From NCBI GenBank assembly GCA_905178155.1, contig CAJINV010000012.1:2006618-2070617 (forward strand): a DNA stretch of 64,000 nucleotides, in the 5' to 3' direction. This stretch comes from Amoebophrya sp. A120 (Eukaryota; Protista; Dinoflagellata). How positions within the stretch are numbered: position 1 is the stretch's first letter; each line of letters starts with the position of its first letter. The notes beneath the pieces were generated by a model. That model saw only the letters and a list, made by a program, of their open reading frames with translations. It was not told the origin of the DNA and did not search any database. Below, in pieces: positions 4,068 through 64,000 of this stretch. The position numbers and the translations under genes were made by a program.

Positions 4068-7000
4068 CTACAATCCCGGTAACCAATCGAAGAAGCTGCT
4101 CGGCGGTTCCACGGGAGCGGAGTCAAAGATGCCCGAACTGCTACCGGCACCGGAAGAGTTCAATGCCTGCGACTGCTGCAGCTGCCGCTCCTTGGAACTG
4201 GCGGACAGATTCGCACTGCTACCCGCAGAAGAAGCCGATCCCATCATCGCCCGCTCAATCGACTTTCGCCGCTCCTGGCGGAGTCTGGTAAGCAAATCCT
4301 GGTCCACCGAGTTGTACTGTAACTGCTGTGTCATGACCGCTATGCGTTGCAAAAATATCGTGTTTAGTAGGAATTGCAATAAAGTACAATTCTTTTCAAA
4401 AGGAAGAAATAGAATTTGTCATGCTAATTGAGGACGAAAAGTAGATTTGTCATGCGTAACCGCAATTGCAATTCATGCGATTGCAGCGATACTTTGCAAT
4501 GCATAGCCGAAGATTGCGACACCCGCCTCGGCGCGTCGTCGTGCGCGTGTCGCACGTTGTGCTCGTAATCCCGGTTCGTCAGGATCGTCTCCGCTTCGGA
4601 AATCGCTTTTGACACATTCCGGTCGTACTGCTGGTCTTGTTGCTGCTGGAAGACGTGCAGCGGGTAGTTGTTATTTGCAACAACTCCACGATTCATCTGT
4701 AAGGCCGACGATGAATTGTCGAAAGCGCTTTGCTGGTGGTGGGAAGAAGACGTCAGGTGGTCCGCATTGTCCACTGTAACTACTCCCGACGGTGCGCCGT
4801 AGCTCGGCCCGGGGGAAAGTCTTCTCCTGCCCCTCCCTCTGGGTGGCGTCCTGGAATGCGGATAATTCTGGCCGCCCAGACTTACACCAGGACTGCCGCG
4901 ACTGTCGAGCGTGTGATTGAAAGCCTGGTGGGAGAAGTTGTTGTCGGTAATCAGATGTTGCGGAGTTCCAGCGTGTTGACCATAGTTGCTGCTGATCGTT
5001 ACCGCGGGGAGCAGATTCGGGTCAGAGTCCGGTAACAAAACCTGCTGCTGATGCCCCGCTGGTGGTCCGGAGTAGAAGTGAAAATCGGCGTTGTTTCCGG
5101 ACGGTCCGTTGTTCATAACCCGTGTCGCGGTGCTGGAACTTGAAGTGGTACTGCCTGGAGCTACTGTGCCTGTTGCTGACCCCGGACCACGAAGATGAGT
5201 TTGTTGGTGATAAATCTCCACCGTGGGCAGGCTTCCCTGCAGGTTGTGCCCGGTGATCGGTGCGTCTTGGGGGGTTGCAAAGTTGTGTCCTCCAGCAGCT
5301 GTAGTGGCGCCATTGTTGTAAACAATCGCCACGGGGAAAGGATGCTGATGCAAAGAACCTTCTTGCTCTTGTTGCTGGTGGCTTGTCACACTTCTCAGCT
5401 CCTGCTGCTTCTTCACGGGAGAATAAGTGGACCGTGTTTCCGGACGGTAACTGCTGACCGGCAATGTAACCCGCTCCGGGTAGTGCAACTGTATCGGCGT
5501 TATCAAATTCGTGCTTGAATTGGAGTATGCGCTGCAAAAGTATCGTACTCGTAGTAATTGCTGCTAAACAGCATTACAAGTTTTATTTGTAATGCTGAGC
5601 GAATTTGTAATGCAACTTATACTAGGTAGTACGATGCTTTTGCACAGGATATGGAGTTCGAATTCTGTTGGCTGTCAGCCCCTGCGGCCTGCTGGTACGA
5701 TTTCACGGTGCTGAAATCGGTTGTCGTGACTTGTCCGCCGGTCTTCAGGACCGTCGCTGCTGTGATTTCTTCATTGGCGTTACTCGCGAAGTCGGCCTGG
5801 TGGTCAGCAGTTGTTGTTTGCAGCGCTTGCTGCATCGCCGGAATCTGGGCCAGCTCCTGCTCGACTTGCTGCTGCATTTTGTTCACAGCATCGTGCGCCA
5901 GGTGGGTGTTGGAAGTAGAAGATACTGCACCAGGAGCTCCTTGTGCTGAAGCAGATGATACTGTTTTGCTACCACTGGCTGCCGGACTGCTGCTTTTCGC
6001 TGCTGGCGAGCCCTGTTGTCCCATCGAGCTCGCGCCGACCATCTGGTCCATCTGCACCGTCTGCAGCAAAGCGCCGATCGCTGACTTCCGAAGTTGGTCT
6101 GTTCGAGATCTTTCCTGCAGGAGCTGCCGTGTGTCTTCCAATTGCTGCTCCGCTACCGCCAGCTGCTGCCTTGTCATATCTAGTTCGTACTTGTAGCCCT
6201 GGCCTTGGTGCGCGAGTTTCCTTTGGTAGGGTGATTTTTCAAATTTGTTTTCAACAGTGCAATCCACCTCCAACATAATTTGCAGAAGCATCATCTTCCT
6301 CACGACAACGATATTTCTAATTCTAACCATGTCGACCCTAGAGATCCACCATGAGATAGAGATTCTACTGTTAGTAGAAGCCTAGAAGTGGATCAACATC
6401 TCGTCGTTGCTAGAAGCACATGCTGATACGTGGACGATGAAAGGTCGTGTTGAAAGAACGAAGATAGTCCACAGCAGAATTTCTTCTACCTAGCGTCATC
6501 CCGCTCGGCAACCAGCCTTTCCTGCGTCTCCTCCCATTTTCTCTGCGCTTCCAGATGAGAATCCCCCTTCTTCATGATTGTCAAGCTCTGGCCGTCTATC
6601 TCGGTTTCGAGCGTTTCTGTATAATTTCAGTGTTGAATGCAAATAAGCTGCATGAACGTGACGTGATGGTGGATTTATTACTGTATAACACAACTCAATT
6701 TCACTTTTTTTACGATCAAACTGTAGAACATCAAAACGACGTGAGAAGTCAAAAAATACCGATTTTCTTTGCGTATTCTTCGGTTTTTTTCCGCAAATCT
6801 TCTCGCATCTCCCGCACCTCTTCTGTGTGTGTTTTGGTCAGTGCGTCGATCTCGGTCTTCAATTCGTCCACCGCCGTCTCTTTCTCCTCGTGCAACTTCA
6901 CCGAATGCCCCCGCAGCTGCTGAATCGCCGCGGAATGCTGCTTCACCGAATTGGACAAGTCGTGGGCGTTGGTTTTTTCCGTCTCCAAATCCCGCTTCAA

Positions 7001-10000
7001 AATTTCGATCTCGTTCTCCCTTTCTTTCAACGTAGAAGTGACTTCGCTGTTCAGCTGTCGCATCTTCGTGAGCAGGTCTTTCAGCTCCTCGTTGGTCTTT
7101 TCTGCACCAGAGTAGGAAGCGGAAAGGTCGGAGTAGCTGCGATTTTTAATTGAATACGATCTGCATCTTCAATGCGGTATTCTATGCAACGCTGCAAAGA
7201 AGGCACGCATTATCTCTCTCATGTTCATCTCGTCGTGCGTAGAGGGAAGTAATGCGCCGCACCACGACCAATTCAAACAACCACAAAATACGCTTTCTCC
7301 TGGTTTTCCCGATACGCAACAGCTTCCTTTTCCAATTTCTCGTTGCTTTTCTCTAATGCCGCCTTCTCGATCTGCAAACTTTTTATCGATTCAACGTTGG
7401 CTATGTGCACCACACGCAGCTCAGCCGCCGCCATCCGTTCTCGTTCGAGTATGAGTGTGCACAACTCCGCCTCCCCCTCATTTGTCATGCAAAAAACCAC
7501 ATGCGCCCCATGCCTCTCGGCACTTTTCGCATGACAAGTTCTGGATGCTCAATCAGCACTACAATCTTCCGGGGTGAATTTGTCACGCAAAGCCTGCACT
7601 CTTGCCGACGCTTGTATTGCTGTTGGTGCCATACAAATGAGGGGGAGGGTGAGTTGTGCACCCTCGTATCGAGTTCCCCGACTGTGGAAGCGAACTTGTC
7701 CATGTGATGCTCCTCCCGCTTAGATTGCTCTACACGCCCCACCTCGAGAGCTTGGAGCTGATAATTTTGGTTTTTATTCATTGCATAGGATTTTGATTTT
7801 CGATGCAGAATGAGTAGTAGAAATGCAAAACCGAAAATGAACCAGAATCAACCAAATGCAAAAAAGCCGGCGCACAGAATCAAGACAGGGCTGTCTTTGA
7901 AGGCACAATAGAAGTACTACTGCGATCCGAAACACGAGCCAGCATCATCTCTCGCTCGATAAAAATACCTTTTCTGCCATGACGAGGCGTTCCTGGTCAA
8001 ACGAGCGCATTCTGTCCTCCATGAAGCGAACCTGCTCCTCCGCGGCTTTTCTGTCATCACGTAACTATCCAAGAAAAAAAGTGAGTAAGTGTAACTTTTT
8101 TGCAGGAACAGCATCACAGATTTGTTCTGCATGACAAAGAAAACCTGTCATGCGTAACTAGTACCAGTACGCGAAAACACGTATTGAAATAGCCTCCGCT
8201 CTGATGTTGCATACCCAGCATGACAAGTGTAACTGTATTGCAACATCTGCAAGGCAAAGTTACACTTACACAGTTTTTTTCTTGCATAATAGCCTTTTCC
8301 TCTCTACTTCCATCTCTTCCGTTTCGGACTTCTCCAGCGTGACCAACTTCATGTGCTCCGTGTGCAGCTCGTCGTGCTCTTTCTTCATCCTTTCAATGTC
8401 CTGCTTCAACACCGTGATCTCGGTTTGGTACTGTTCCCGTTCGTGGATGAATTCCCGCAGTTCTCCCGACAGCGTGTCTCTTTCGATCACGTAATTCGCC
8501 ACCTCCTCGCGGTTCGCCTCCTTCGCCTCCTCCACTTGAATTTTCAGTTTCTCGATTTCCTGCGCCTTTTCCTCTAATTTTTGCTCTACACCCAGTCTTT
8601 CGTGGTCCTTGTCGGCGATTTTCTGTTTCCACTTCGTCTCTTCTAACTGCAGTTTCTCCTGCGAGTTGTTCTGTTCCTCGAAAAACGCAGTTTTGGACTT
8701 CGCAATTTCCTGTTCGAGGAACGCCTTCTGTTCGGCAAGTTGCTTGTGGAACGCTTTCTGCTTCAATTTCTCGTTCTCCTCGATCTCCTTTAGCTGCTTG
8801 TTGTGCGCCTCCACCAGCGCCTCAATTTTGGCTTGCAGGGCGGAATTCACAGTGGTCAGGGAAACCACACGCTGCTCCATGGAGGCGATCTGAAAAAAAT
8901 GAAGTATGGGAATTTCATCTCTGCATATTTTGACAAATGAACAACTACACATAGTTAGACTTACCATGCCTATCATGGCACGGTGCATCACAAGACGGGC
9001 TCGGGGATGAAGATTTAGCACCTGTAAGAAAAATTTCTAAACTTTTCTCCATACCTGAACATCAAAGTTCTCCCGTAACTTTTCGACCTCCTCTTCCTGA
9101 GCCCGATACACCACCTGGCTCTCGTGTAACAGTTCCCGTAACCGGCTCGCTTCTGCCCGCCCGCGCGAGCACTCCACCGCCAATGAGTTGAAGGACTTCT
9201 GCAAGTCTTTGATCAAGTCCACTCTCTGCGGCAGTTCCGGATCCAGGAAACGGAACAGGTTCACCCGAAGTTCCTCCCTTGCACGCTCCGCTTGCTCCAG
9301 CGTGTTGTAGCGAACTGTGATTTCATGATCATGTCGCGATCCTTTTTTCGTGGAGCCTCAAGCTACAATGCGTATATGACAGCACGGCAACAATCAATAT
9401 CATGATGATGAAAACTATCGGAAGAGGACAAGACTGCTACAACAACACTCCTCCACTATACTCTCCTGATCCCGCAGCTTCACTGTGAGAAATCTTGCGT
9501 TGTCCTTTTCCCAGGCCAAGTACTTTTCAATCGACACTTTGCTGTTTCGGATAATCTCGATGTGCCGCATATGCAATGTAAATTTCCTGTACATGTACAA
9601 AATGCATGACAAATTTCGCTACATTGCAGAGTCCAACTTGTCATGCTGGACTAGGATTGAAGGCAAGTTTTGTCATGCAGAGACTGCATATGTACGTGTA
9701 CGGGAAATTTCCTGTGGATACGGCAGCCCGGACTTTTCCTTGGACCCGTTCACGCCGCTCGCTGGTATGATAATCTTATCCTGTGCAAAAGTATCGCACT
9801 CGTATGAATTGCAGGTATGCATGACAAATCTGGTTTCCTACCCAAATCTGCATTACAAATTCCAATTTTCTTCCTGATAAAATTTGTCATGCGATTTATA
9901 CTAGTAAGTACGATACTTTTGCAATGCATAAATCTTCTCCTTCTCCGCTTGTCTCGAGCTCGAGCTCGATGCTGACGACGCAGTGCTGTATTTGTTTTTC

Positions 10001-13000
10001 TGCATATTATTCACGCGCGATGCCGGTGCGAATGTCATCGCCGCGTTTGCGGCCGTTGTCTGCGCCGCCAGCAGCTGTGTAGCGGCCACAGACGTTGCAG
10101 TGGCATTTGGCAACATGAAGGAAGTAGAACCGGTGGCCGCAGAGGACGATGCAGAAAGGTCGTTGTGGGCGTTAGAAGCAGGAGGAGCCACTGCTAATGG
10201 TGCGAAGTTGCTGCTAGCCACTGCTGCATAATTAACCGCGTTCGTCGTTGGTCTTGCACCTCCTGCCTTATCGAGTTTTGAAACGTTGATTTCCTTCTCG
10301 GGTTCCGCAAGAGAAGCCGGTGCTCCTGCCCCAGCTGCCACATTCTGTTCTTCCGCTGCTTCAAAATACGTGGCCGCAACTTCCAGCCGTCTCTTTTCTT
10401 CCTGCTCGTCTATTTCCTCTTGTTCTCGGAAGTAGCTGTTTACTCTTGCATCCAGAATGGTCTGCTGTAGTCCCGTCGTTTCCTTCGCCTGCGTCGCAGC
10501 CATTCTACTCACCGTCATCGCAGCTTTAGTTGTAGTACTTTCTTGATGCTCAAGAACATCATCCAACTCCTCTTTGCTGTGATCGTTTTCCTTATCGTTA
10601 TCCTCCTCCTCGTATCCTGTGCAAAAGTATCGTACTCGTATAAATGCAGGTCTTGCATTACAAATTTCTTTGTCGACGAAAATCAGCATTACAAATTTTA
10701 TTTCTCATGCTGAGAAAATTTGTAATGCATTTATACGAGTACGATACTTTTGCAGTTCATACCTCGGTCACAATTGCAACGTTCGCCGCAATCGCAACTT
10801 CGTCCCCGTTATGGACTGCAAAAATGTCTGGGTCTGGAAGGTTGGAACTTGTGATGCTAACTTTGGACTCTAAAAACTTCTGTATTGCATGACCAGCAAG
10901 AGGAGTCCGGTTTGTGCTACGCGTGGAGGGCATTTGTCATGCGGAATAGGCATCAGGAAGGCCTCTAAAAATCTGTGATGCTAGGGCTTCCATGACAGAC
11001 ATTCTGTGTCATGCAAAAACAGCATAACAAATTTCGGATTCTTCCAGACCCAGACATTTTTGCAATCCATACCCGTTCTCACCGCCCTCTATCCTTTCGA
11101 AGATCATTTTCGTGGTCACTCCGACCGATTTATCAAATGTAAAAATGTCTGGGTCTGGAAGATTGCAACTTGTCATGCTAAATCAGCAGCATGCAAAAAT
11201 CTGTGTTGCATGATGGCCAAAAGTCGTCCAGTTTTGACCAAGTCGGGAGGTAGTTTCTCATGCAGGATAGGCATTAGAAAGGTCTCGCAGAATCTGTCAT
11301 GCTAGGTCCTGCATTCCAGACCTCATGGCGGGTCATGGAAAAGCAGCATGACAAATCGCGCATTCTTCCAGACCCAGACATTTCTGCATTTGATACGATT
11401 CGGCGATCTTCTCCGGGGCAGCTTTCACAAACTCCTCCGCTTCGAGAAACTTTTCGTCTACTTGTAGTTCATCGTCCTGTGCGGGTGCTGGGGGTGCGGC
11501 TTTCGGATCTTCCAAAGCGGCCGCGCCAAGTGGTGGGCCTCCAATAGGGTTTTGGATTGGCGGTCCTGATCGCGCTTCTTCGTTCTCCATTGACATAATT
11601 GCGTCGTCTTCTACAATCATCTCGGTACTTCTGTAAAACTCCGCTTGCTCTTCCTCTTCATCTCCACCCGCAGCTACTAGTACACCCTGCTCTACTACTG
11701 CCGACGCATCTTCATCTTCTTTGACCTGCGCCCCTGTTGCGCCATCTGGATCCGTGCCGTCCTCGCTATCAAATGTAAAAATGTCTGGGTCTGGAAGATT
11801 GCAACTTGTCATGCTGTTTTTGCACTCTAAAAAAATTTGTATTGCATGACCAGCAAGATTGGTATAATCTGTGCTACACGGACAGGGCATTTCTCATGCG
11901 GATGGTGCATTAGGAAGCCCTCTAAAAGTCTGCGATGCTAAGTCATGCATTACATGCATCATGGGTCATGAGAAATATGCATGACAAATCTTGCATTCTT
12001 CCAGACCCAGACATTTTTACATTTGATACTCGCCGTAGTAAAGCAAAACCGCACTGTTCTGGACGTTCCCGTGCCTTTGCTGGTCGATCCGCAATGCTTC
12101 CGCGGAGGTCGGCGGCGGGAGCCGGTATTTCAGCAACTCTTCGTTTTGAAACAACTCCGGAGGAAGGAAGATGTTCATATTCTTTGTCGCTTCTTGCGGC
12201 TGACTGCTAGTACTTGTTTTCCCTCCACCACGACTAGAAGAAGACGAGCTCGAACTCGTCGTCCCACTAGCGCTACTGCTGCCCACGCTCGTACTGGAAC
12301 TAGAGTTGGAAAGGGATAAAGAGTTGCTGCTAGTACTGTGCTTGTTGTTGTTCCCCTTGGTCTTCTCGCCGGCCGCAGCTACTCCATTGGTGGTGGAACT
12401 GGATGCTGATGTACTTGTTGAATAAGTGTTTTTATCCTTATCCGTCCAGTGATTGATCTGCCTGGGTCCAAATCCCGGCGTCTGTGTCCCGTTTTTGTTC
12501 GCTTGGAGATACAGCCTGCCACGGCCGCCTGGGACAAATGATGAAGAAGTTGCTGAAGTTGATGTTGTGCCGGCACTATTACTTACTTTCGCGGTCGTTG
12601 CAGAAAACGCTCGGGTCGTGGTGGAGGTCGCATTTGCTGCTGCTGCGGCTGCTACCGAGTAGTGGTTGTTCTTACTGTTTGCACCGAGATGTAGTTGTGC
12701 TGCTGTCGTCGCCCCTGCTCGCGGTGACGGAGCGCCAGTGCTCTTTTGTTTTGGTTTTGCGTCAGAACCTCCTCGTCGTGTCGAAGAACCTGAAGATGAC
12801 CTGCTCGAAGTAGAGGACGCAGAGACCACCTTCTGTGTAGTAGGAGCACTGACGAGGCTAGAAGAAGTGCTCTGACGCACTTGCATCAAACTTCCGTTTT
12901 TACTGCTGTTCATCCCGCCAGGTACAACATTTGGAGCCGTCGTCCCCGTTGCCTGTTCTTGCGGCATTACGTGCCGCGGCTCATCCGGGGACGCCAGCGA

Positions 13001-16500: not shown

Positions 16501-18076
16501 AAAAGCCCCAGGCGTCGCATTTTGGTAAGGAGAAGGCTGCGAGATGTAGTGCGCAGAAGATGCCATAGAAGATACCCCAAGACCAGCCCCAAAGCATCAT
16601 ACCGTGGTGCATAATGCTACCCCGCATGGTGCTACTGGCGCACTATTCTTACTTTTGCCCTACTCTACTGTTACCAAGTGGCAGAAGTGGAACAGTGGAG
16701 GTGTAATCACTTGAGATGAGCAGCCTGTTTCAGACGAAAAAAAGCCAAACCCACTTGATATCTGCTAGGGTGATTTGACGCGAAAAAGACGTGTTTCGGG
16801 CATCAATTTGATGCCAAAAATCGCGGCTTTTTGCAGGGGTGATTCAAGCAGATTCGAAGCGGGAGGAGTCAAATGAATCATAGGGCTAATTGATAGCTAC
16901 AAAACGCAAGGTGATTACACCTCTTTTTTTGCTTCGAAAAAGATGAATTTTTGGCAAAAGTTGAGCTTTTTTCAGAAAATCCGACACCCTCGGGACGCTA
17001 CGCCCGACGGTATGGAGGTGTAATCACTTCATTTTTATGGTGTCGCTTTTCCTATCTTTAGCAATGGGCTTGTGCTTGGTATTTTGGGTTGCGAATGCTT
17101 CCCCCGAGTTGTTTGCAAGCTATTCAGGCGCGATGGCCCCAGCGTCCACTCATGGCCATTGCGTTCGTCCCCCGTAGCCACCAACCAAATAGCGCAAACC
17201 TTATCGAGAAAGGCGCGACCTTCCTGAGGAGCGTCGCTGTGTCTCAGGTTATTTGGTTGTATATATTGGGCGCTTCCTTATGCGTGCGAGCCGGGCCATG
17301 CACTGCGGTACTTGGAAAGTTTTTTTTTTCCGTATGGTGATTCATTTGTAAGGTGATTCATTTACCCCTGTGATAGTCGTGTTTTGAAATTTGTAATGCT
17401 CCATCAATCAGCACGATAGGCTACATTTGTGATGCTGCTGAACGAGCAAAACCGGACAACTACCCCACGAGGCCAAGCTTGTCATGCGCAACATCAGCCT
17501 AAGCTTGTTGATTTGTCTAGCAGATTTCCCTTCTTGACTATGGGGATGGGCGGGGACCTTTTTCCTCAGGATATCTGGGGACAGGATTTTTGTTCGCGTG
17601 TACGGCTCGTAGCTGCTTGTCCGCGACGCCGCGGCGGTCATCGCGATCTGTTGGTCTTCCCGCTGTGACAACTCGTCATGAGGATTTATTTGTTCGTTCT
17701 CGACGTTATTTTCCTCGGGTAAGGAATTCAAAGTGGATCTCCGGTCAAAAATATTCTGGTCCTCCACACGACAACTAGACGGCCGTCGTAGACTCTCCGC
17801 GATCCGGCCGGGTGTGATGCAGCAAGCGCTCGAACGGCGGGACAGAACTTCGAGCCCACAGTCGTCCAGCAGAGCGTCGCCCCGTTCCAGCCCGTTTTTT
17901 TCCACCATCCTTGCCCAAACGCCCGTTGGGTCGTAGGGCGCGACCTGGGAAAGCGACTGTCGTTGGTCCCATTCGTGTTTCCGGCGTCTGACGTTTTCCT
18001 CGTAATTCTTCCGCGCCGCAATAAAGGCGTGCTTATTCAAAAGCAGGGACGAGGAGGAGGGGGAGGTAGTGGACAT
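13529..18076 (-). CDS. ER-bound oxygenase MpaB/DUF2236 (rubber oxygenase-like) domain protein with C-terminal TM segment
   Basis: Three ORFs join (ILSPD|GNSS; KRY.D|TGWAIVDW); motifs VKLGQQLW, VLYHTG, AVRHMHALAR, PLSQFDL, MRFIGYHLGI resemble the family; hydrophobic C-terminal stretch. Confidence 0.75.
14914..15168. mobile_element. IE family A, expanded by an internal 25-bp tandem duplication (15009-15058)
   Basis: TATCCTGTGCAAAA...TTTTGCAGTTCATA; flanks ATCAT/ATCCT; AGTAACTGTCCGACATATACAGCTA x2. Confidence 0.85.
16237..17573. mobile_element. IE family H carrying a nested 1-kb element
   Basis: TATCCCGTGTAAAAACG...TTTTTCCTCAGGATA; DR TCTGG; removal joins the flanking ORFs in frame. Confidence 0.85.
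16340..17375. mobile_element. Nested 1036-bp non-autonomous TIR element
   Basis: TIR TATCAAAGGAGCAAGTGAATCACTTT / TATCACAGGGGTAAATGAATCACCTT; DR GTCGT. Confidence 0.85.
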
Positions 18077-24457: not shown

Positions 24458-24459
24458 AA

Positions 24460-24648
24460 TTACTTGGACGACCCACGGCGCATTTCGGCAAGCTGGACTT
24501 CAACGTCTTGCAGGCGTTTGTTTAGCTTTTCAAAACCTTCGGCGATTTGCATCTGCAGAAGGGTGGAAACGGACTCTCCACCGACGTCCTCCAATATCGC
24601 AAGAAAAAGCTGTGTCGCTGTTTGCCTGTGATGCAGAGAATGCACCAA
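24460..24648 (-). CDS. Hypothetical short coiled-coil exon
   Basis: QIAEGFEKLNKRLQDVEVQLAEMR. Confidence 0.3.
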   Translation of the reverse strand: MVHSLHHRQTATQLFLAILEDVGGESVSTLLQMQIAEGFEKLNKRLQDVEVQLAEMRRGSSK

Positions 24649-53000: not shown

Positions 53001-56000
53001 GTGATATGTCTACGTTTAAGCATTCCTCAAAACTGGTTTTCATGGAAAGCGAAAACTCCTTGCTGTTGCCAAAAGACTCCCGGACATATGAAAGCCTCAG
53101 GTTGGAAATCCTCAAAGTGAAAATTGCTATATATTATATTCATGCGAAAAAAGAGGTAGACAGAGGGTAAACAAGAGGTGGCCGAGAGGTAAAAAAGAGG
53201 TCAAAAGAGGTAGAAAAGAGGTCGATAGGGGTGGAGAGGTGGCGCGGGACCCCGTTCGAGAGGGTCGGCGAGAGGGTGCGCGAATAAGGCCCGCCGAAGC
53301 GCTCACCTTAAAGCGCCGCCTAAGTGCCTGAGAGGGTGCAGAGAGGTCAAAAAGAGGGGGCGCGAGAGGTCGACAGAGGTGGAGAGAGGTGGCGCGAATA
53401 AGGGGCGACCTCTCGCGGGCCCTCTTGGCCACCTCTCGGCCACCTCTGTCGACCTCTGCCCACGAGTATAGCCGGACTATTAGCGGGGACCCCCAAAAGA
53501 GGCCAAAAAGAAGGCCTGCGAGGGGTCTGCGAGAGGGTAAAAACACAAAAAAGCGGGCGCGAATCCGCATGGTAGTCCCCACATTTGGCATTGCAGGCAT
53601 GTCGCGGCCTTGTTTTGTTCAGCGCCTTGCTTTCCGCGCCACCCTCTCGCGCACCCTCTCGCGCACCCTCTCGCGCCACCCTCTCGCGCCACCCTCTCGC
53701 GCCACCCTCTCGCGCCACCCTCCCGCGCGACCCTCTCGCGCCACCCTCCCGCGCCACCCTCTCGCGCTACCCTCTCGCGCCGGGCGGCTTCTGTTCGCCC
53801 CCGGTGTTCTTTGCAGCTGCTCCCTGCGCAGAGCGCCCGCAGGCGCGGGAGGCGCGCAAGTGGTGCTGCGTGTTGGCGCGGCGCAACCAGGCGGCAGGAC
53901 TCCAGTATGTTTCTTTGTGCGCAGGCCCGTGGCGTTGTGGTCCGATCAGCGAACAGTCTTGCCCCGGCCCAACAGCCTTGCGCTCCGGCGGCAGCCGGAG
54001 CATGGCTGGTAATTTGTAATGCAAAAAAACGACTCCAGTTGAAGCGTCATTTGTAGTCGGCGCATGACAAATTTCCCGGGCACTCAAAACGTGTCTGTCA
54101 TGCTAGTTAGGCAAAGAGGTGCCCTTCTGTCGCGCTAATTAGCAGCCCAATTCTTCACCCCTAACAGGACAATAGTCGGCCTCCATTGTGTCCTTTGCAA
54201 TACAGTCTTTTTTGCCTTGCATTTCATGCATCACAAATAATTATTTCCACTTTGAGGATTTCCATTCTCAGGCTTTCATAGGACAAACACGCTGTACTTG
54301 TTCCGGAGTTGGAGCAACGCTTCGATTATGAACTGCAAAAGCATCGCACTCGTACTAATTGCAAACATGCATGACAAATCTTTTTGCTAAGGCAAAACAG
54401 CATTACAAATTCCATTTCTAATGCTGAGGGAATTTGTGATGCTATTTATACTAGTAAGATGCTTTTGCATTGCATATCGATGAACTGCACCGGCTGGTCT
54501 TTATCGCAAGAAAAAACTGTTTCACTGTGAACTTGTGATGCAGAAAATAGAACACAGAACTCTTTGTCTTGCTACACCTGCAAGGCATTGGATTTTCAAG
54601 CGTGTTTTCCCTTGGGAAGCGCGCATGACAAATTTTCAGTGTCATGTGTGGCAAACTTGTAATGCAGATCCTGCAAAGTCATCACAGTGAAACAGTTTTT
54701 TCGTGGGATAGTCTTTCGTGCTGGATTTATTGGTTTCTGTTCCTGCTGTTCCGGTTGCGGAGGATGTTGATCCAGCTGCTTGATTTTGAAGATTATCCCC
54801 AGCACTCCCGTCCTGTAGATCGGGCTGCTCAGCAGCAGATCCAGATGCACCAGCAGCGGCCTTATTTTTCATCTTCCCAGAAGAGTTGCTGTTGTTCAAG
54901 ACAGCAAATCCCGCTTCCTTGATGCACTCCCGCAAAACGTTGTGCAGCGGTTTTAAACATTCCGGACACCGTTGGAACAGGTCGTGCATCCGTTTCAAAT
55001 CGTCGACTTTATCCTCCAAAAACATTTGCTTGGCGCCGTTGTTGACTAGAGTTTCGTAGTGTCGTAAGATCCACTCTTGGTCCATCAAATGCTGTATCCT
55101 GTCGAGCGTGGAGTCGTGGAGATAGCTATGTACCCGGTGCTTCTCCTCCAAAATTATGCAATGTAAATTTCCTGTACATGTACAAAATGCATGACAAATT
55201 TCGCTAACTTGCAGTGCCCAATTTGTCATGCTAGACTAGGACTGAAGGCAAGTTTTGTCATGCAGTGACTGCATTTGTACGTGTACGGGAAATTTACTGT
55301 GGATAAAAATCCGCGCCTCCGCCTTTTTCAGGTAATCCTGACATATGGATTGCAAACACGTCTGGGTCTGGGACGAGATTGCGAGACGTGTCATGCTAGT
55401 CTGGCATGACTCTGGGATCTGTATTGCGTGGCAACCAAGAGGAGGTCCTCTTGATTTTCATGCAAAAAGCACTCAGTTTCTCATGCGGAATATTACGCAA
55501 CACAGAACCATGAAAAACTTGTCATGCTTGGCGGCGCATTACACTGGGCTCATTATTCGGTGACTTGCATCACAACTAACTTTCCAGACCCAGGCATATT
55601 TGCATTGGATATGACACGTGTTCTGACTGATGTACTTGTTCGACTCTGCCTGGTAGAATTCCTTATCAAATGTAAAAATGTCTGGGTCTGGAAGAATGCA
55701 ACTTGTCATGCTAAATCTGAAGCATGTGCATGCAAAAATCTGTGTTGCATGATTACCAAAAGTCGTCCAGTTTTGACCAAGTCGGGAGGGAGTTTCTCAT
55801 GCAGGATAGGCATGAGAGAGATCGCACAGAATCTGTCATGCTAGGTCCTGCATTCCAGACCTCATGTGTCATGAAAAAGCTGCATGACAAATCGCGCAAT
55901 CTTCCAGACCCAGACATTTTTGCATTTGATATTCCTGACTGGCTTGCAAAAACGGCTCCTCGAAAGACTCCCGGTACACAAAAATTTGCGCCCCGTTGTA

Positions 56001-58238
56001 GGAATTTTGGATGCTTTGCCACGGCGCCGTGCTGGAACTACTCCCCCCGGAACTCCCCCCGGTGCCGAAACTAAGTTGGTTACTGTTGTAGTTGCCGTTT
56101 GATGTAGTAGTTCCACCGCCGAAGAAAGAACTGTTGCCAGGAGCCCCTCCACCTCCACCAGCATTCATCATGCCTCCAGTCGCGCCACCGCTGCTGTTAC
56201 CACCCATACCTGTCAAGCTCGCCGTACTGGAGTTCGCGGAAGATGGCTGGGAGAAGTTATTATTGTTGTTAATATTCCTGTTCATGTTATTCTGATTCGG
56301 GAGTAAAGCCATGATTCCGCCAGAACCACCTAACTCGACGAGCATGTAGACCATGTGGCGGAGCAGTAATTTGTCGATCGTTTCCCCGTTCCGCTCTGCC
56401 TTGATCCAGTCCAGCATGATCTTTTGCAGCCGATCTTTCACCTTCTCGTGGTGGGTAATTTGATGTCGAAACTGCACTAAACCAACGTCGTAGACCGGGA
56501 CTGTTTATCCATTGCAAAAACAACGTACTAAGTAGTACAAATTGCATCACAAATTTGGTCACTCAGCTAAAAAATGGAATGCGTGATGCTTGCTTTACTT
56601 GATGTGTACAAAGATAGTTTGGTCCTCTTGAAGTTGAACTTTTACTTTTTCATGCACAATGACTGCCATAACTAGTACGAGTACGACATTTTTGCACAGG
56701 ATACTTTCTTCTGCTGGGTGACGTAGTTGCGGTCCATGTACATCAGGATATCTCGGATCATTACCATGGTCGTCTTGTGGTCGTCCCATTGCAGTTTGAT
56801 GGTCTCCAACAAATTCTCGTTTGTTGCGTTCGTCACATATCCTGTGAAAAAGTATCGCACTCGTAGTTGTAATCGCAGTCAAGCATTACAAATCTCCCTC
56901 TTAACCAAAATCCGCATTACAAATTCCATTTTTCATGCTGAGAGAATTTGTCATGCCATTTATACTAGTAAGCACGATGCTTTTGCATTGCATATCACAT
57001 TCCCGCTCGTTTCCTGTAAGTGATCCCGTATTACCTCTTCCACGCCGTTGTACAGCAATATGGGAGTGTCAGGACCGAAATCGACAAAATCGAAAAACTT
57101 GTGATGCACAAAATCGATGCCCGTTAGACCCACAGTTTGTAGTCGGCGCATGACAAATTTGCCACGTCCTGGAAGCGAAGCTGTCATGCGGTTTAGGGCA
57201 AAAGAGCTCCCCTCCGCCATGCTAGCCACCAACCCGATTCGTGACCCTTAGCAGGATTACAATAACAATCTGCCTCCTTTGCGTCCCATGCAATAGAGTC
57301 ACTTTTTGTGTCGCATCTTCTGCATGACAGATTATTTCGACTTTGTCGATTTCGATCCTGACGCTTCCATAAGCAACTCGCCATGCTTATGGAGCACGAG
57401 GTTGTAGGCGTTCCTGAGGTCGTAGCAGGGTGATTTTTGTACGTATAATACTTGCAAGTCGACGATGACGTAAAATGCAATCTATCTCGCTGCAGCACAC
57501 GGACTTCTACAGCATGTGCATGTTATATCAAAAATGCAAAGAAATTATAAAGCAAACTACGGGGGGGTGGAACAAAACAAGCTGTCATAGCTGCGGCGAT
57601 GTAAATGATCTAAACAGTACCTGTAGAGTTCCTCAAAACTCAAGGTAGACGCGTTGTGCTGGTGGATCTGGTGTATTGCTGCTTTCAATATGCAATGTAA
57701 ATTTTCTGTACATGTACACAATGCATGACGAATTTCGCTAGTACCTTGCAGAGTCCAACTTGTCATGCTGCACCAGGATTGAAGGCAAGTTTTGTCATGC
57801 AGAGACTGCATTTGTACGTCGTGTACGGGAAATTTCCTGTGGATATTCAAGCTTGCCCACACGTTTTCCGCATCGCGTTTGTTCATGGGATCACTATGCA
57901 TTGCAAATATGTCTGGGTCTGGAAAGTTGTAATGCTAAAAGTGAATTATAGATGCACTACAATACGGAGCTAGACATGACAAATTTTTTGGCTGCCATCT
58001 CCTACGTATTCCGCATGGCAAACTGCGTTTTTGTATAACAGGCAAGAGGGCCTTTGCGTGCCTATGCAACACAGATTCTCGAGTCATGCCAGACAAGCAT
58101 GACAAACTTGCATTCTTCCAGACCCAGACATTTTTGCAATCCATAATCACCGGACCTGAACAGTTGCCTCGTCCGGTTCACGGCAGCGCTGGCGTGGCCC
58201 CCGGCGCCCCGGGCTGCGTTCGCCGAACTGTAGTTCAT
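50062..58238 (-). CDS. CUL3: Cullin-3-like E3 ligase scaffold (17 IEs plus 4 GT-AG introns)
   Basis: [12 protein letters not shown]|[61 protein letters not shown] (neddylation site), [12 protein letters not shown]...YNYLA; GT-AG introns 50698-50821, 51520-51676, 51986-52109, 57414-57620. Confidence 0.93.
50172..50434. mobile_element. IE family B
   Basis: Family B TIR; DR GAACC. Confidence 0.92.
50962..51211. mobile_element. IE family B
   Basis: Family B TIR; DR TGGAC. Confidence 0.92.
51265..51426. mobile_element. IE family A-like
   Basis: TATCGAATGCAAAA...TTTGCAATGCATA; DR GGAGC. Confidence 0.88.
52251..52530. mobile_element. IE family B
   Basis: Family B TIR; flanks GTCCA/GTCAA. Confidence 0.9.
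52605..52752. mobile_element. IE family A
   Basis: Family A TIR; flanks GTCGG/GTCGT. Confidence 0.9.
52796..53006. mobile_element. IE family D
   Basis: TATCCTGAGAAAAAAGTGT...GTTTTCCTGTGATA; flanks TGTCC/TGTCT. Confidence 0.88.
53124..54009 (+). mobile_element. Non-autonomous Helitron-like element
   Basis: Inserted between A and T with no DR; AT-rich 5' end TTGCTATATATT; hairpin GCTCCGGC-GGCA-GCCGGAGC (53982-54001) ending 8 nt before the 3' terminus, which is CTGG (CTRR). Confidence 0.7.
53636..53781. repeat. 12-13 bp minisatellite (GCCACCCTCTCGC)n
   Basis: About 11 tandem copies inside the Helitron-like insert. Confidence 0.9.
54327..54476. mobile_element. IE family A
   Basis: Family A TIR; DR TCGAT. 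Confidence 0.9.
54502..54710. mobile_element. IE family K
   Basis: TATCGCAAGAAAAAACTGTTTCACTGTGA TIR; DR GTCTT. Confidence 0.9.
55155..55305. mobile_element. IE family E
   Basis: Family E TIR; DR AAAAT. Confidence 0.92.
55344..55611. mobile_element. IE family B
   Basis: Family B TIR; DR TGACA. Confidence 0.9.
55664..55931. mobile_element. IE family B, very similar to the 11131 copy
   Basis: Family B TIR; DR TTCCT. Confidence 0.92.
56506..56703. mobile_element. IE family A, degenerate
   Basis: TATCCATTGCAAAAA...TTTTTGCACAGGATA; flanks CTGTT/CTTTC. Confidence 0.8.
56838..56994. mobile_element. IE family A
   Basis: Family A TIR; DR TCACA. Confidence 0.9.
57059..57371. mobile_element. IE family F
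   Basis: TATGGGAGTGTCAGGACCGAAATCGACAAA TIR; DR AGCAA. Confidence 0.92.
57689..57845. mobile_element. IE family E
   Basis: Family E TIR; DR TTCAA. Confidence 0.92.
57895..58145. mobile_element. IE family B
   Basis: Family B TIR; DR ATCAC. Confidence 0.92.
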
Positions 58239-59488
58239 GTTTTTCTACTTGGGGGGCGGTTGACGCCAGCGCCCACGGAAGGTCGTTCTTGTTTCCCACA
58301 AGTGCTGGCGCACTCGTCGACGACCACACTATCGACGAGTCACCAACCCGCTTTGCCTGCCCAACTCACCGGTTGCAGCTGGACAGTTACTCTTCGCCCG
58401 CATGATCCCCGGCTGATGTTGGGCAGCAGTGCCTGGTACGCGGACGACTGGGAGCTGCGACGCAGAGAGCGGCTTGATACTGACGCGTCGCAAGGAGCGC
58501 CGAAGTCGGCATGAAATTTTGCTTCTGTTACACGTAGCCTGGACCTCTTTTTCTTCGATAACGATATTGTATACGCTTATTGGCAAAATAAAGAACAACG
58601 TACTACCCAGTATAACTTTTTTAATACGCTATTATGGTTCATTAAGTTGATGCCCTGTCTACTTTCTTAGTTAGAAGACTGAAATAGAGTCGTAGAAATG
58701 GAGGCGAGCAGAGTATCAAAAGTGAAGCTACGGTGGCCTTGTCTATTTATTTTCCGTGCAGAAATTTTGTAATCCTAGTTTATACGCTTGGCGATCATCG
58801 CTACTTGCGAGAATAAAAAGGTCGAACTCGTCATCTCGTCCACTTCGAGCGGGCGCTGTTTGGGCCATTTTGTTTTTGATCATCATCGTCAGAATAAGCA
58901 CAACAGCCATGCTGGGCTGACGGTTTGGTGGAGCTGCTCCGACGACCGGGGGCGGGGGCGCAGAACAGCCGTTTTTCCGAACATAGTTTGTGAGACGAGG
59001 CATGTGCAACAAGAACGTAAAAAACGTGTTGTAACAACAGCAACAGACGGGCAACAAACGCAAGGTGGCGCGGCCGCGGCAATCCAACGCTATTGTGCGC
59101 CGTTGCAAATCGGAGGTCGTGCCGGTCATTTTTTTTGTGTCCTCTGGGCGGACAACAATCATCCAAACATAATTCTCATTCGCCAGGAGCACCACTCAAC
59201 AGGAGAGGGCTTTCTTCAAAAATTCTTCATCAATTGTACAGGTCGGATATTAGCGGGAGAATTACGAATTGGTAGTGGTAAGTACATCAAGTAGCAGGGG
59301 GTAAATTGTAGCCACGAAGTAGATCATACATTTTCATTTTCTAGTTCTTGGAATTGGTGTACATAGCAGCATCGACAAGCATCAAGATAAACATAGAGTA
59401 AGTTGTAAAAGTACTTACATTTCGATTTGAACAGTCAACACGCAATACAAACATAAATATTTTCTTTGAAATTCTTCGCCACCTCTGA

Positions 59489-62400
59489 TCAATCCCCAGC
59501 ACTTCCGCCCCCATGGTCCAAGAACGAGGGCTTACTGGTGCTCGTCAACTGCCGCAACCGTTTTGTCGCGTCCGATCCGACTTTCGCATGCGCAAACCCG
59601 ACGGTTGCGGTGACCCCGTTTTCGTGGTTTTCCCTGGTGAAATATCAAGCAAAAAAGTGCTAACGTTAACGGTTTTGTGGCATTCCAATCATGCATGACA
59701 AACTCTCGCTATCGTGCATGCTATGCAATACAAATTTGGGCATGATTTCTCGTGCACTCCTGCATGCCAAATTCCGTTAACGGTAACACTTTTTGGTGTG
59801 ATACGAAAACGGTGAAGTAGTGTCGCATGAAGACTTCACCGAGCAGCATCCCCGGCCCGTACCCCTCCGGGAGATCAATTTCCATGAACGCCAAGTCGCA
59901 CAAATCAGATTCGTCCGTCACCATGTAAATCTCCTGCGGAATTAACAGCTCCTCCAATTCTCCCGTTTCCCCGTTTCGCAACACGTACGCGAGCGGCGGG
60001 TAAGTTTGGTCATTGATTTCGCTGCATTGCACGGCCGGGAGTCTTTTCTGCAGGGTCGCGTAGAGTTTCTTGCCCGCGGTGAAATAAGTCGTTCCGGTAT
60101 CTACCACAAGCTTCGCATTGGCTTTGGCGTGCGGGAACAGCTCGTTGGCCGTTTTTTGCTGGAGAAAGGAGGAAGAGGAGGACGAGACAGGGACTGCACC
60201 AGGGGAAGTTGAAGTAGGATCATCATGCGAAGAAATCATACTAGGCGAGGAGGTCGCGGCAACCGCAACATCTACCTGCTCTGCAACCCTGCTAGACACG
60301 ACCTGCTGTGTAGTTGCTGTTGATGGGATCCCCGCAATCACTGCAGATGACCCTGCACCCGCGTGGAGGTAAAGGCCGCCGTTCGTAGTTGATGTTTTTC
60401 GCTGGTCTGGAAGAAGATCATGTTGGAATGTTTTTCGACCGTCTGGAAGAAGATCATGTTGCTGGTGTTGTTGAAAATCCTTCGAACTTCTCTCGTTGTC
60501 GTTTCTGGTCCTTCTTGCTTGTACACGACCCGCCTCTGCGTCTGCTTGTTCAGTTGAAACGGCAAGTACTGAGTCTGCGCTGCTTCGTGCAAGTTGTGTA
60601 GATACAGCACGCGGTGCGCCGCTGAATTCCTCTTGATACGGCCGAATGGTGATTTCGTGGACAGAAGCTGCTGTTGTTTTAGCTGCAGATAGAGCTTCTT
60701 CACTACGAGGATGATGAGCTCCGGCGGTAGTTTCCTCTCCACGCGCCCGCCGCAGTAATTTTTTCATCTTTTTGGTTTTGCGGCCGAAAGATGAGTGGTC
60801 GGTGGTTTCATCTTCGTCAATCTTCATTTCCAGAAACGAAGCCGTCGCAGCGCTGCCAGGAGTGGTCGTCGTTGCACTTCCGGCAGAACCAGCTGAGAAG
60901 TTGATGTCCTCTCCACCTCCGCCTTGCTGCGCAAAAATCACTCCCTCGTCATCAATGGTCATACCGCTACGGGGAGCAACAAGAGCTTCGTCAACACTAC
61001 CGCTTGCTCCTTCGACATCTCCCCTGCGCCTTGCCCCCTCATCTTCGTTTTCTCCCTGCAACAAACCCCCAGCACCTGCTTCCTCGCGCTTCCGGACAAA
61101 CTCGCCCGTGCTCACGTCGTAGATCTCATCCCCGACCTGTGAGAGTGCAGAACTCCCCCTCCCCCTCATTTGTATTGCATGAAAAGCAATACAAGCGTCA
61201 GCAAGGATACAGGTTTTCCATGACAAATTTAAACAGGAGTGTGTGTAGTACTATTTGGGTTTCCAGAACTTGTCATGCAAACAGTGCCAAGAGGCAAGGC
61301 GTAAATTAATTAAGTAGGTACTTTGCATGACAAATGAGGGGGAGGGGGACTTGCACACTGTCATACGACCCGAAATTGGTACAAGTCCAAGCTCCAGTAG
61401 TGCTGCTGCGTCACGTTGAAGCGTTTGATCGGTGGTTCGTAGAAATGCTCGTTATCAAATGTAAAAATGTCTGGCTCTGGGTCTGGAAGATTTCTAGATT
61501 TGTCATGCATATTTTCCATGACCCATGATGTCTGTGATGCATGCCGTAGCATCACAGATTTTTAGAGCGCTTCCTCATGCCTATTCCACATGACAAATGC
61601 CATCTCCGCGGAGCACAAAATCTACTCCTCTTACTGGTCACGCAATACAAATCTTTTTCGAATCCAGAGACAGCATCACAAGTTTAGTTTCTTCCAGACC
61701 CAGACATTTTTACATTTGATACTCGTCCACGCCGCCCCAGAACAGCCCGTTGAGGGGTTCTCGCGAATTCTTCCCACCAGCACCGTGGGACGACTTGTCG
61801 TTGGGGTCTTGTACCGTTGCTATGAACTGCAAAAGTATCGTACTCGTATAAATGCATTACAAATTTCCTCGGCATGACAAATGAAATTTGTAATGGGGAT
61901 TTACCTTAAGAAAAAGATTTGTAATGCATGATTGCAATACGAGTATCAGATACTTTTGCACAGGATAGTTGCCGCTTCTTCCATGTTGAAGTAAAACGCA
62001 AATTCGTTCTTTTGCAACACCTCCTGCTTTATGCAATGCAAAAGCATCGCACTCGTACTCGTAGTAATGGCAATCGTGATGCATTAGCATTACAAATCTT
62101 TCTGTTAAGCAGGTGACTCCGAATTACAAATTTTCTTTCTCATGCTGAGCAAATTTGTCATGCGAATTATACTAGTACGATGCTCTTGCATTTCATATGC
62201 TTGATCACGTTGTCAAAAAACGGCACCGCGTTATTCGCGGACATCGAGGGGAACGCCAAGCCCAGAATCCCCTCGAAGGGGATAGATTTGAACGCGTCAC
62301 CGATTTCCTTCTCAATTAACCCGAACGACTGCTGTTTTACGGTGAATGGTATGCATTGCAAACATTTGGTGCCATGATGTATGTCTCTGGCATGACAACT

Positions 62401-63657
62401 ATGAAATCTGTGATGCTTGGACGACACGCATCAAAAATAAAGCACTAGATCCTCTATCATGCAAAAACGCAGTTTGCCATGTGAAGTGCGCAAGATACCA
62501 AGCGGCTCAGAAGGGTGTCATGCGCAGCTGCGTATCGCACTGCAGCGCTACCGGCACCTTTCATTCAGATTCAGTATTAACAAACTAGCATTACAACACT
62601 CATCCAGACCCAGTGGCATCATCAAAAATATTTGCGATGCATAGACGGCCCGACATGAAAGTCGTCGATGCCCTGAATGCCCTTCAGCTCGCCCGTGCCG
62701 AACTCAATGTCCAGCTCCTTGTCGTTCGCGTTTCCGTTAAATTCCGTGAAGGACTCCGACAGAACGTGGCTGTAGCGGTTTCTGCCGGTATCGATACACG
62801 GCTCGGTTGTGCACAGGTCGGAGGCGATCCAGAGATTCGTGCTACCGGTATCAAACACCACGTTGATCATGGACTGTTCCTCGTAGTGGCACTGCGCGAC
62901 GTTGGGGTCTTTCTCCTTCTCACTAGCCACGAAGGGCGAGAGGATGAAGCGGATGGAAGAAGATGCTTCTTCTCCCTCCGTTTGCTGTTCCAGCAGCGAG
63001 TTATCCGCACAGCCGTTGTATCGAATGCAAATATGTCTGGGTCTGGAAACTTGTAATGTTGAGATTCCCATTGGTGAGCCTCTTCCAAGTGCCGCCAAGC
63101 ATGACAAGTCGTCGTCGAGCTTTCTGCTCATACGTAGCACGCATTACAAACTCCTGCGTTATTTCTGCATGACAAAAAAGGCACAACTTTTGCTGGTCAT
63201 GCAACACAGATTTGGCACTCATGCAAGGAAAGCATCAGAAGTTCCTCCTTTCCAGACCCAGACATGTTTGCAATGGATACATTGGGTCGGGAGACGGAGC
63301 CGACCCCGATATGGATGCGTCAGGTTTGAAATCGTCAAAGTTGAAATAATTTGTAATGCATAAAATGCATGACCCGACGTACGTGTGTTGCAGAGCAGGC
63401 AAGTGAGGCCGATTGTAAGCCTGTTTGGGGCTACAGCTCGAGCTGCTAAAAGCATGAGAAAATCGCTCTTCTTTGCCTAAACAGCATGACAAACTGGATT
63501 TAGGGGCCACCGAAATTTGTCATGCGCCACTTACAAACTGGCTTCCAACTGGCATCCATTTTATGCATGACAAATTATTTCAACTTTGTCGATTTCAACT
63601 CTGACACATCCATACCCGACGGCGCCAACGTACTGGGAGTTGTAGAGGTTGTCTAGC
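59489..63657 (-). CDS. A1 aspartic protease, plasmepsin IX/X / ASP3-like (5' part beyond the window)
   Basis: NSQYVG, VVFDTGSTNLWI, IEFGTG, FEGILGLAFP, HYW, VVDTGTTY, LLGEVFMRHYFTVF, VGFA. Confidence 0.9.
59643..59803. mobile_element. IE family J
   Basis: TATCAAGCAAAAAAGTGCTAACGTTAACGG TIR; flanks TGAAA/CGAAA. Confidence 0.88.
61138..61365. mobile_element. IE family C, inverted relative to 7450; one end TGT
   Basis: Family C TIR; DR CGACC. Confidence 0.9.
61453..61721. mobile_element. IE family B
   Basis: Family B TIR; DR CTCGT. Confidence 0.92.
61821..61967. mobile_element. IE family A
   Basis: Family A TIR; DR GTTGC. Confidence 0.92.
62030..62197. mobile_element. IE family A
   Basis: Family A TIR; DR TGCTT. 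Confidence 0.9.
62350..62643. mobile_element. IE family B, degenerate
   Basis: TATGCATTGCAAA...TTTGCGATGCATA; flanks AATGG/GACGG. Confidence 0.8.
63019..63279. mobile_element. IE family B
   Basis: Family B TIR; flanks CGTTG/CATTG. Confidence 0.9.
63310..63614. mobile_element. IE family F, near-identical to the 36250 copy
   Basis: Family F TIR; DR CCCGA. Confidence 0.92.
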
Positions 63658-64000
63658 TATGCATTGCAAAAGCATCGCACTCGTACTAATTGCAAGTATG
63701 CATGACAAATCTGCTTCTTAACCTCAATCCGCATTACAAATTTCATTTTTCATGCTGAGGGAATTTGTCATGCGATTTCTACTAGTACCAAATATAGCCG
63801 CCGGGGCGGAGGTAGTGAGGTCGTTGGGCGTTTTCTTGCCGGCCATCGCCTTGGCCGCGGCTTTGCTTTTTCTGGGCTCGCCATACCGCCGTGAGTAACG
63901 TTAGGCCGCACGGTATGGCGGCCGCTTGATAAACATCGCAAATTTTGGCAAATTCCCGAAGTTCCTTCCCGAAGGCCAGCCCCCATGCTATGGGGCCGAT
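63658..64000. mobile_element. IE family A interrupted at ~63789 by a GC-rich insertion that runs off the window
   Basis: TATGCATTGCAAAAGCATCG start; the expected GATGCTTTTGC...ATA end is replaced by unrelated sequence. Confidence 0.75.

Follow-up and report, generated by a model that had tools for sequence, protein, structure and literature searches.

The window, by which we mean the whole 64,000-nt stretch of DNA analysed here, holds four interrupted genes, all on the minus strand: one for a 1970-aa protein (deposited A120 protein P0122; 4071..13096, with 10 introners plus other introns), one for a 1221-aa protein with ankyrin repeats and a kinesin-14-like motor (P0002; 27320..36586, 18 interruptions), a cullin gene (50062..58238, 17 introners and 4 GT-AG introns) and an aspartic protease gene (59460..63900, limits approximate, 9 introners). 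Every one of the 18 interruptions of the kinesin gene is an introner, and no GT-AG introns are needed to read it. Hand curation yields 66 elements bounded by terminal inverted repeats (TIRs), which together occupy 17,453 bases, or 27% of the window, bearing out an original prediction, made from the letters alone, of some 65 introners at about one per kb. A strict scan requiring TAT...ATA termini, a perfect 5-bp direct repeat (DR) and at least 16/24 TIR matches recovered 40 pairs in the window and none in any of 20 Markov-shuffled windows.

By BLAST clustering, the elements fall into multi-copy groups of 23, 17, 7, 5 and 3 copies (F1 to F5), besides a related pair (16237/43543) and 9 single copies. 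The predicted number, about nine families, varies with the fineness of the split. The P0122 gene contains F1 copies at 4341..4505, 5526..5651, 9570..9720, 9777..9930 and 10613..10761, F2 copies at 10810..11071, 11131..11395 and 11767..12028 (a perfect 24-bp TIR), an F3 copy at 8066..8288 and an F5 copy at 7450..7668, one end of which reads TAC. The protease gene carries F1 at 61821..61967, 62030..62197 and 63658..63794 (right TIR truncated), F2 at 61453..61721 and 63019..63279, F4 at 63310..63614, F5 at 61138..61365 (one end TGT) and single copies at 59643..59803 and 62350..62643. Outside the four genes lie F1 at 14914..15168, 38009..38157, 38458..38628 and 42015..42164, F2 at 41671..41938, F3 at 24595..24834 (imperfect DR), F4 at 39195..39498, F5 at 43885..44102, and the related pair: 43543..43821, with a perfect 24-bp TIR, and 16237..17573, which is enlarged by a nested 1036-bp TAT...ATA element (16340..17375) that has its own 5-bp DR and no internal ORF longer than 92 codons.

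We scored 64/66 elements for DR and terminal motif, leaving out the split copy at 33634 and the truncated one at 63658. The DR is perfect in 45/64, in line with the count of about 45 in the original prediction, which had also described nearly all copies as bounded by TAT(N7)AAA. The terminal TAT and ATA are indeed almost invariant, and position logos read N-TAT(G/C)...(G/C)ATA-N4; the full motif is less common than claimed, being present at both ends of 48/64 copies (about three quarters), at one end of 5/64 and at neither end of 11/64.

These elements are, with virtual certainty, introns of transposon origin already published for Amoebophrya sp. A120, a marine parasite, and are those that the original prediction had named for this genus; they are not a new system, since the exon translations of two window genes are identical (100%) to deposited A120 proteins and the TAT-N7-AAA signature is that of Farhat et al. 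2021 (PMC7789003). Like the introns described there, they have the same inverted repeat in the same organism, DRs at their borders, repeated non-GT-AG ends, RNA-supported removal and no transposase found. They also resemble the A120 families of Gozashti et al. 2025 (PMC12130899), TIR DNA introners with lengths of about 149, 210–230, 250–260, 278 and 305 bp. The earlier identification of MITE-derived introners in functional genes is supported: the elements have TIRs and a target duplication of constant length, with near-flat target composition, and are short, non-coding and multi-copy. A DDE-type transposase encoded elsewhere would insert them in either orientation and presumably duplicate 5 bp at target sites that show no clear preference for a sequence. 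A search for a transposase ORF bounded by the same TIRs, suggested for the genome with the original prediction, covered long elements: judged by eye, no long credible ORF was present in four of them from the window or in three from another 384 kb of sequence at other loci. In PMC12130899, fam38 is proposed as an integrase-like ORF family. A scan of viral contigs gave 0 matches. In a metagenome, 130 loci were picked up, all from a single assembly (the 80 listed include JACKZZ01 contigs); apart from a kinesin paralogue 74% identical, no locus overlaps the window.

Kinesin FDG|YN, cullin HGEL|LYNG and protease GGVD|EHFY reappear once an element is taken out together with 5 nt, as had been predicted for these motifs, and at 58/60 junctions the reading frame stays open across the flanks examined. 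The two others are 33833, which is nested in another element, and 36250, for which the flank extends past the start codon. A reading of the genes as pseudogenes is ruled out by the RNA joints described below and by the match to the deposited kinesin.

In RNA contigs each element is missing together with 5 nt, whereas DNA contigs retain the elements. We treated runs X3–X5, which are one sample, and X8, which contributes only 3 junctions, as RNA, because GT-AG introns too are missing from the X3 contig and the interior of a 968-bp element is nearly uncovered. Contig data drop rare junction variants, and the genes tested all lie on the minus strand. A joint table that included the DNA run was dominated by repeat matches, and the raw-read runs X9 and X10 placed 19 and 3 reads, mostly 90–95% alike, with no junctions.

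Of 18 RNA joints, 15 are listed, and 14 of the listed ones skip an element of the kinesin gene together with 5 nt, a nested pair counting as one; the fifteenth, 34090|35024, was rejected as a repeat match from another locus. The skipped elements include decayed introners at 29486..29833 (joint 29480|29834, at a depth of 120–154 against 13–18 for an unspliced contig), 29888..30103 (29882|30104) and 30171..30397 (30165|30398), and a decayed copy with a weak hairpin at 35262..35528 (35257|35530). Three are F1 copies, at 30704..31671 (30698|31672; about 800 bp of internal insertion), 31768..31912 (31762|31913; in the orientation opposite to 30704) and 32056..32200 (32050|32201). Further joints skip F2 copies at 32294..32799 (32287|32799; internal insertion, and a partly unspliced contig at depth 6–10), 34050..34329 (34043|34329) and 34787..35060 (34781|35061), an F3 copy at 34480..34697 (34474|34698), a single-copy introner at 35813..36116 (35807|36117) and an F4 copy at 36250..36530 (36244|36531). 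In the nested pair, a young F1 copy with a perfect TIR and target TACCA (33833..33981) has inserted across the splice site of an older introner (33634..33829), splitting its right end and DR, and the whole 355 nt are skipped (33628|33984); a chance GTATAT donor in this region might serve to remove them in one step. The kinesin gene also contains F2 at 27811..28081 and 28867..29134, the latter being the FDG|YN site with a loose end in the RNA joints, and F3 at 28145..28372 and 28452..28666.

One cullin RNA contig lacks 16 introners and the 4 GT-AG introns, and all four of its length sums are exact (1308, 702, 2346 and 703). Removed from the cullin transcript are F1 copies at 51265..51426, 52605..52752, 54327..54476, 55155..55305, 56838..56994 and 57689..57845, F2 copies at 50962..51211 (by the length sum), 52251..52530 (5′ end TAC in transcript orientation), 55344..55611, 55664..55931 and 57895..58145, F3 copies at 52796..53006 and 54502..54710, and F4 copies at 57059..57371 (the HGEL|LYNG site) and 53087..54280, the last removed whole with an 890-bp foreign insert; the gene also holds F2 at 50172..50434 and F1 at 56506..56703. 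Removal is seen for elements in either orientation, where the DRs have decayed, where the hairpin is weak and where one element is nested in another. The proposed mapping of junctions in RNA shows elements precisely missing from transcripts, without GT-AG, and the proposed check for element-less DNA alleles shows DNA contigs that still carry them: the DNA-like run X1 bridges 51265, 56506 and 62350 at depth 28–30, with its other listed contigs at 21–32. We regard removal on RNA as very probable.

The placement of the cuts can be read at informative junctions, those whose two repeat copies differ; the 45/64 copies with perfect repeats are not resolvable. In 13/13 informative junctions, from four genes, the intron can be read as N-TAT...ATA-NNNN, the cuts lying 1 nt ahead of the TIR and 4 nt beyond it (placement 1, or 1+4). 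Ten of the 13 give tight limits. Placement 0 is excluded at 59643 (junction 59638|59805), 62350 (RNA piece start 62645, allowing 1 or 2), 35262 (joint allowing 1 or 2), 8066 (by the deposited protein) and 4341, where the DR copies disagree at positions 1 and 5 and the deposited protein excludes placements 0 and 5. Placements of 2 or more are excluded at 63019 (RNA piece end 63013, one side of the joint), 34787, 35813 and 29888 (DR copies alike at 1/5 positions), each of which allows 0 or 1, and at 9570, where the deposited protein excludes placements 2–5. The three looser junctions, 56506 (RNA piece end allowing 0–2), 30171 and 29486, are compatible with placement 1. Placement 1 alone gives 0 differences from the deposited 1221-aa kinesin, the deposited proteins being not independent of the RNA contigs, as they were probably built on related RNA data. 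Five junction predictions made ahead of testing, 34787 and 35813 among them, all held. At other loci, imperfect repeats show the predicted switch in substitution polarity between positions 4 and 5, although the signal is weak (transitions 10:3 versus 1:3, hand count over 22 rows, p=0.10; orientation inferred from codon use for 161/262 copies). On this evidence we consider a single fixed placement highly probable.

Such introns mostly lack GT-AG, as first predicted: it occurs in 1/63 elements in the supported placement (the copy at 10613), and GT or GC with AG in 4/63 in any placement, which rules out hidden GT-AG sites reached by sliding. The U2-type rule of a GT or GC donor with an AG acceptor thus fails. 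Both the first base and the last two are free, with GT in 17/63 and AG in 2/63 window copies; among 161 oriented copies from other loci the counts are 42 for GT and 16 for AG. G at +1 shows no enrichment (p=0.43). The second step of the spliceosome normally requires G at +1 and AG. T at +2 and A at +3 occur in 64/64 window copies, a regularity partly built in by the way the copies were found, and the genome's ordinary donors, GTATG and GTAAG, resemble the introner 5′ end in the 1+4 placement, with T-A at +2/+3. A at −7 is likewise present in 64/64 window copies and changed in 2/153 others, without 5′/3′ asymmetry. A comparison of 153 copies did not bear out asymmetric conservation of T+2/A+3 as donor and of A at −7 as branch point (4 changes at +2..+4 versus 5 at −5..−7), and the T-A conservation may reflect only a transposon end.

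Our best overall explanation, in which confidence and doubt are about equal, is that the A120 introners are cut 1+4 on RNA, likely by a relaxed U2-type spliceosome. The introner 5′ end would be taken for a donor whose first base is free and which has T+2, A+3 and G/C+5, and the 3′ cut would be measured from the terminal ATA without use of AG; the fixed spacing likely reflects how the altered splicing machine reads the elements. The components described in PMC7789003 include U2, U4, U6 and 83/89 spliceosomal proteins, with U1 snRNA reported as undetected in either Amoebophrya strain. In its Table S4, 18/18 predominant non-canonical sites of both strains are xT-xx, and in strain A25 the repeats begin TTA, yet the top sites are TT-xx, again with T at +2. 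Fritillaria borealis, in which most introns escape GT-AG, offers a precedent; there a modified U2 spliceosome is supported by U2AF paralogues and m6A changes (PMC13326754), whereas here the spliceosome is our best guess, one that may equally prove wrong.

The same elements and the same 1+4 rule could instead be served by a dedicated endonuclease and ligase cutting at fixed distances from short paired termini, a reading by analogy with what has been proposed for Euglena, which we find credible but doubtful. Free end dinucleotides would suit it, and a symmetric signal would explain removal in both orientations. We know of no such splicing enzyme. Of three folded copies, two form strong hairpins (z −7.5 and −5.0), as this reading would favour; the third, 35262–35528, is no more stably folded than its shuffled versions (z +0.87). 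Its removal in register, with no contig retaining it, counts for the spliceosome. Of the two routes in the original idea, splicing or excision reading the paired termini, the evidence favours splicing of RNA, and extensive pairing in a hairpin is apparently not required. The nonconventional introns of Euglena (PMC12501133) are described with free end dinucleotides, a paired terminal motif at fixed spacing and a suspected MITE origin, with borders likewise resolved by leaving out slidable introns, and with release as circles. Their code, N3CDG...CH′GN5-6|R, also has a 3′ spacer 2–3 nt longer than the 5′ one, but is not matched by the window logos: CDG/CHG stand there at spacing 3 and 5–6 with a purine opening the next exon, TA/TA here at 1 and 4, and recent multi-copy families are found here, unlike there. 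Two further points speak against the nuclease and ligase: the cut falls where T-A mimics a donor, and the top sites of strain A25 have T at +2 despite its TTA repeats (PMC7789003).

That no fixed rule exists, with cuts sliding within the DR or editing at RNA junctions creating the apparent placement, is improbable. The many unresolvable copies leave room for it, and PMC7789003 describes splice positions as variable or unknown relative to the hairpin (Fig. 3 legend; 1–5 nt in the Fig. S23 legend), with possible editing at 2–4% of intron ends; one placement is nevertheless common to every informative junction, most of them tightly limiting. More improbable still is DNA excision in expressing cells, ciliate-IES-like or transposase-mediated, with transcripts copied from element-free templates: TIRs with a target duplication are transposon anatomy and rare or stage-specific excised alleles would be invisible in contigs, but DNA contigs bridge elements at full depth, two elements (29486 and 32294) have unspliced RNA contigs and the interior of a third is nearly uncovered, the junction is asymmetric in transcript direction with no alternative letters listed, and cut-and-paste excision normally leaves both duplication copies.

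To the published system we add the contrast between RNA and DNA contigs, the fixed 1+4 border and removal across orientation, decay and nesting. How A120 introners are spliced is posed as an open question in PMC7789003, which gives direct repeats of 3–5 nt (5 bp in the Fig. S19 legend); 'nested', 'lariat', 'subterminal' and 'internal motif' are all absent from its main text. Among the rows listed in PMC12130899, the families differ in how splice sites and duplications are called (duplications of 2–5 bp; 'co-opt both', 'carry 5 prime'). The nested pair at 33634–33983 recalls fungal stwintrons, in which one intron interrupts the splice signal of another, although those are canonical U2 introns (PMC8469720), unlike the introners here.

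As 1+4 equals the 5-bp duplication, every new insertion would be silent, whatever the target. We tentatively extend this to a single positional code, N-TA...TA-NNNN, blind to end dinucleotides and tuned to the target duplication, by which any insertion, in either orientation and even across the splice site of another intron, would be erased from mRNA; it might be run by a U1-independent spliceosome without GT/AG rules or by an undescribed nuclease and ligase, and strain A25 may use the same code. A fixed 1+4 rule explains how coding sequence can tolerate insertions in the tens of thousands, permits exact annotation and makes the splicing question directly testable. If the spliceosome is the catalyst, it works in this parasite with a free first base and without AG.

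Strict scanning of the window recovered 40 TIR pairs, each flanked by perfect 5-bp repeats, where 20 shuffles gave none, and the curated set comprises 66 elements (17.5 kb), in agreement with the roughly 65 TIR-bounded introners of the original prediction. Perfect direct repeats flank 45 of the 64 scored elements, as had been estimated, and TAT(N7)AAA stands at both ends of 48/64, so that 'nearly all', as first claimed, is about three quarters. Five multi-copy groups together hold 55 copies, and four of these groups include copies in either orientation with respect to the genes, which lie on the minus strand. Only 26/64 elements, counted with their extra 5 nt, have a length divisible by three, so most elements cannot be read through. 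The motif GCAT(G/T/C)ACA(A/G), counted on both strands, has 169 matches within elements and 8 in the remaining 46.5 kb; found in 64/66 elements and in every family, it is a candidate binding site of a transposase or splicing factor. Four of the eight outside matches fall in two GT-AG introns (50698-50821 and 51986-52109) and one probable intron (about 21250-21410), and these introns may be old introners turned canonical. By eye, introner 14914-15168 carries a 25-bp tandem duplication at 14994-15058. A GC-rich stretch (1400-2900, up to 66%) with long low-information ORFs has no repeat in the window or in 130 other loci.

Run X1 behaves like genomic DNA, its contigs bridging three whole elements at a depth of 28-30, comparable to that of the other X1 contigs listed, whereas run X3 behaves like mRNA. 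A single 3986-nt X3 contig covers the cullin gene (50062..58238), and its four internal gaps are accounted for to the base by 16 elements, each with 5 nt more, together with four GT-AG introns. In the ankyrin-kinesin gene (27320..36586), the element plus 5 nt is skipped at 14 of the 15 joints listed among 18, the remaining one being a repeat match; X3-X5 represent a single sample, and run X8 backs three of these joints. Precise removal from transcripts of working genes, as predicted, is thus borne out, and the elements covered are absent from transcripts apart from minor unspliced contigs of two. Because those contigs reach only about one-tenth of spliced depth and the interior of a 968-bp element has nearly zero cover, DNA carry-over is low. 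RNA runs X9 and X10, of the same species label, contain a 90-95% alike copy of an F2 introner end (55696-55721) and lack the genes, which hints at a related strain carrying related introners.

Matching direct repeats are not needed, since at 29888-30103 the copies match at one of five bases and the element is still removed in register. Nor does a long hairpin appear to be, as 35262-35528 folds no better than shuffles, yet shows exon-only depth; two other folded copies form strong hairpins. Copies of 968 and 1194 bp with foreign inserts are removed too, and neither length nor orientation has to be fixed. A young element lies across an older element's end at 33634-33983, where 355 nt are cleanly removed; removal may proceed inside-out, or each end may be recognised as a motif by itself. 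Of the proposed unconventional system reading paired termini, precise removal without GT-AG stands, the evidence favours RNA splicing over DNA excision, and a long paired hairpin does not appear to be required.

Where the two repeat copies differ, a transcript base can be assigned to one copy, which makes the junction informative for placement, the number of bases removed 5' of the TIR. Placement 0 is ruled out at 59643 and 62350 (RNA contigs), 35262 (RNA joint), and 4341 and 8066 (deposited protein); placements of at least 2 are ruled out at 63019 (RNA contig, a single side of the joint), 34787, 35813 and 29888 (RNA joints), and 9570 (deposited protein). Looser limits at 56506, 30171 and 29486 are compatible with placement 1, the sole placement permitted at every informative junction, and all five placement predictions written down before testing held. 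When the kinesin gene is freed of its 18 interruptions at placement 1, the deposited 1221-aa protein results with zero differences, whereas any other placement alters 1-5 residues and placement 4 also ends prematurely; the deposited proteins, which probably go back to related RNA data, therefore confirm, rather than replicate, the placement. The intron is thus N-TAT...ATA-NNNN, cut 1 nt before and 4 nt after the TIR, and its junctions are tied to TIR ends rather than to ordinary GT-AG sites. The end dinucleotides are set by the target sequence: 36 distinct pairs among 63 elements, with a single GT-AG, as expected from the claim that most lack it. This placement fits the T at the second position in 18/18 leading non-canonical sites of Farhat Table S4, in the accessible part of that source (PMC7789003).

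We favour, at about even chances, removal by a relaxed U2-type spliceosome. At placement 1, T-A-T-G/C aligns with +2 to +5 of the genome's own donors (GTACTG, GTATGA, GTAAGA, GTATAA), T+2 recurs in leading sites of both strains and A120 snRNAs apart from U1 are reported, in the accessible part of PMC7789003, and the non-canonical introns of Fritillaria offer a precedent, as far as the available text of PMC13326754 goes. Against it, the +1 base and the final two bases are unconstrained, and a test for donor/branch conservation asymmetry in element copies was null. A Euglena-like nuclease-ligase is a somewhat less probable remover, to which the similar code geometry of Euglena nonconventional introns points (PMC12501133, available portion). 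Sliding or edited junctions fit poorly and are very improbable, and excision at the DNA level, also a poor fit, is slightly more so.

From the TIRs, the duplication of a constant 5 bp and the near-flat composition of the targets, we infer that a DDE-type transposase acting in trans would insert the elements; inspection of ORFs, covering the window and 384 kb of related loci, found none. For A120, a TIR family of integrase-like type has been proposed (PMC12130899, accessible part). Introners also host other inserts. An 890-bp GC-rich insert without TIRs lies within an F4 introner (53125-54010) and, at another locus, within an F1 introner (L052:1186-2230), and is on sequence grounds probably a second mobile element hiding in introners. 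Inserts with 18-20 bp flanking duplications (32314-32590; L026:3001-3972; L063:1547-2930) suggest retroposition-like or repair-type insertion. By eye, the insert 30845-31630 in introner 30704 has long imperfect inverted ends of its own, with a palindrome at its centre (31277-31356).

A kinesin exon and a first-gene exon are each 100% identical to deposited Amoebophrya sp. A120 proteins, and the accessible part of Farhat et al. 2021 (PMC7789003) describes A120 introners with a TAT start, then seven variable bases followed by three or more A, direct repeats of 3-5 nt, and 29,850 copies in 1954 families. The window elements are therefore the published system, which the original prediction had named, and the system as such is already known; that part of the source leaves border position and removal machinery unsettled. 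The refinements here are the fixed 1+4 rule, the nested case, and the finding that removal depends on neither repeat identity nor hairpin strength, none of which was found in the openly readable papers searched (the PMC12130899 supplement in part); the most frequent placement may already be visible in the figures of PMC7789003. Near the protease gene start, an F1 introner whose right TIR is truncated (63658-63794) provides a natural test of 3' end requirements.
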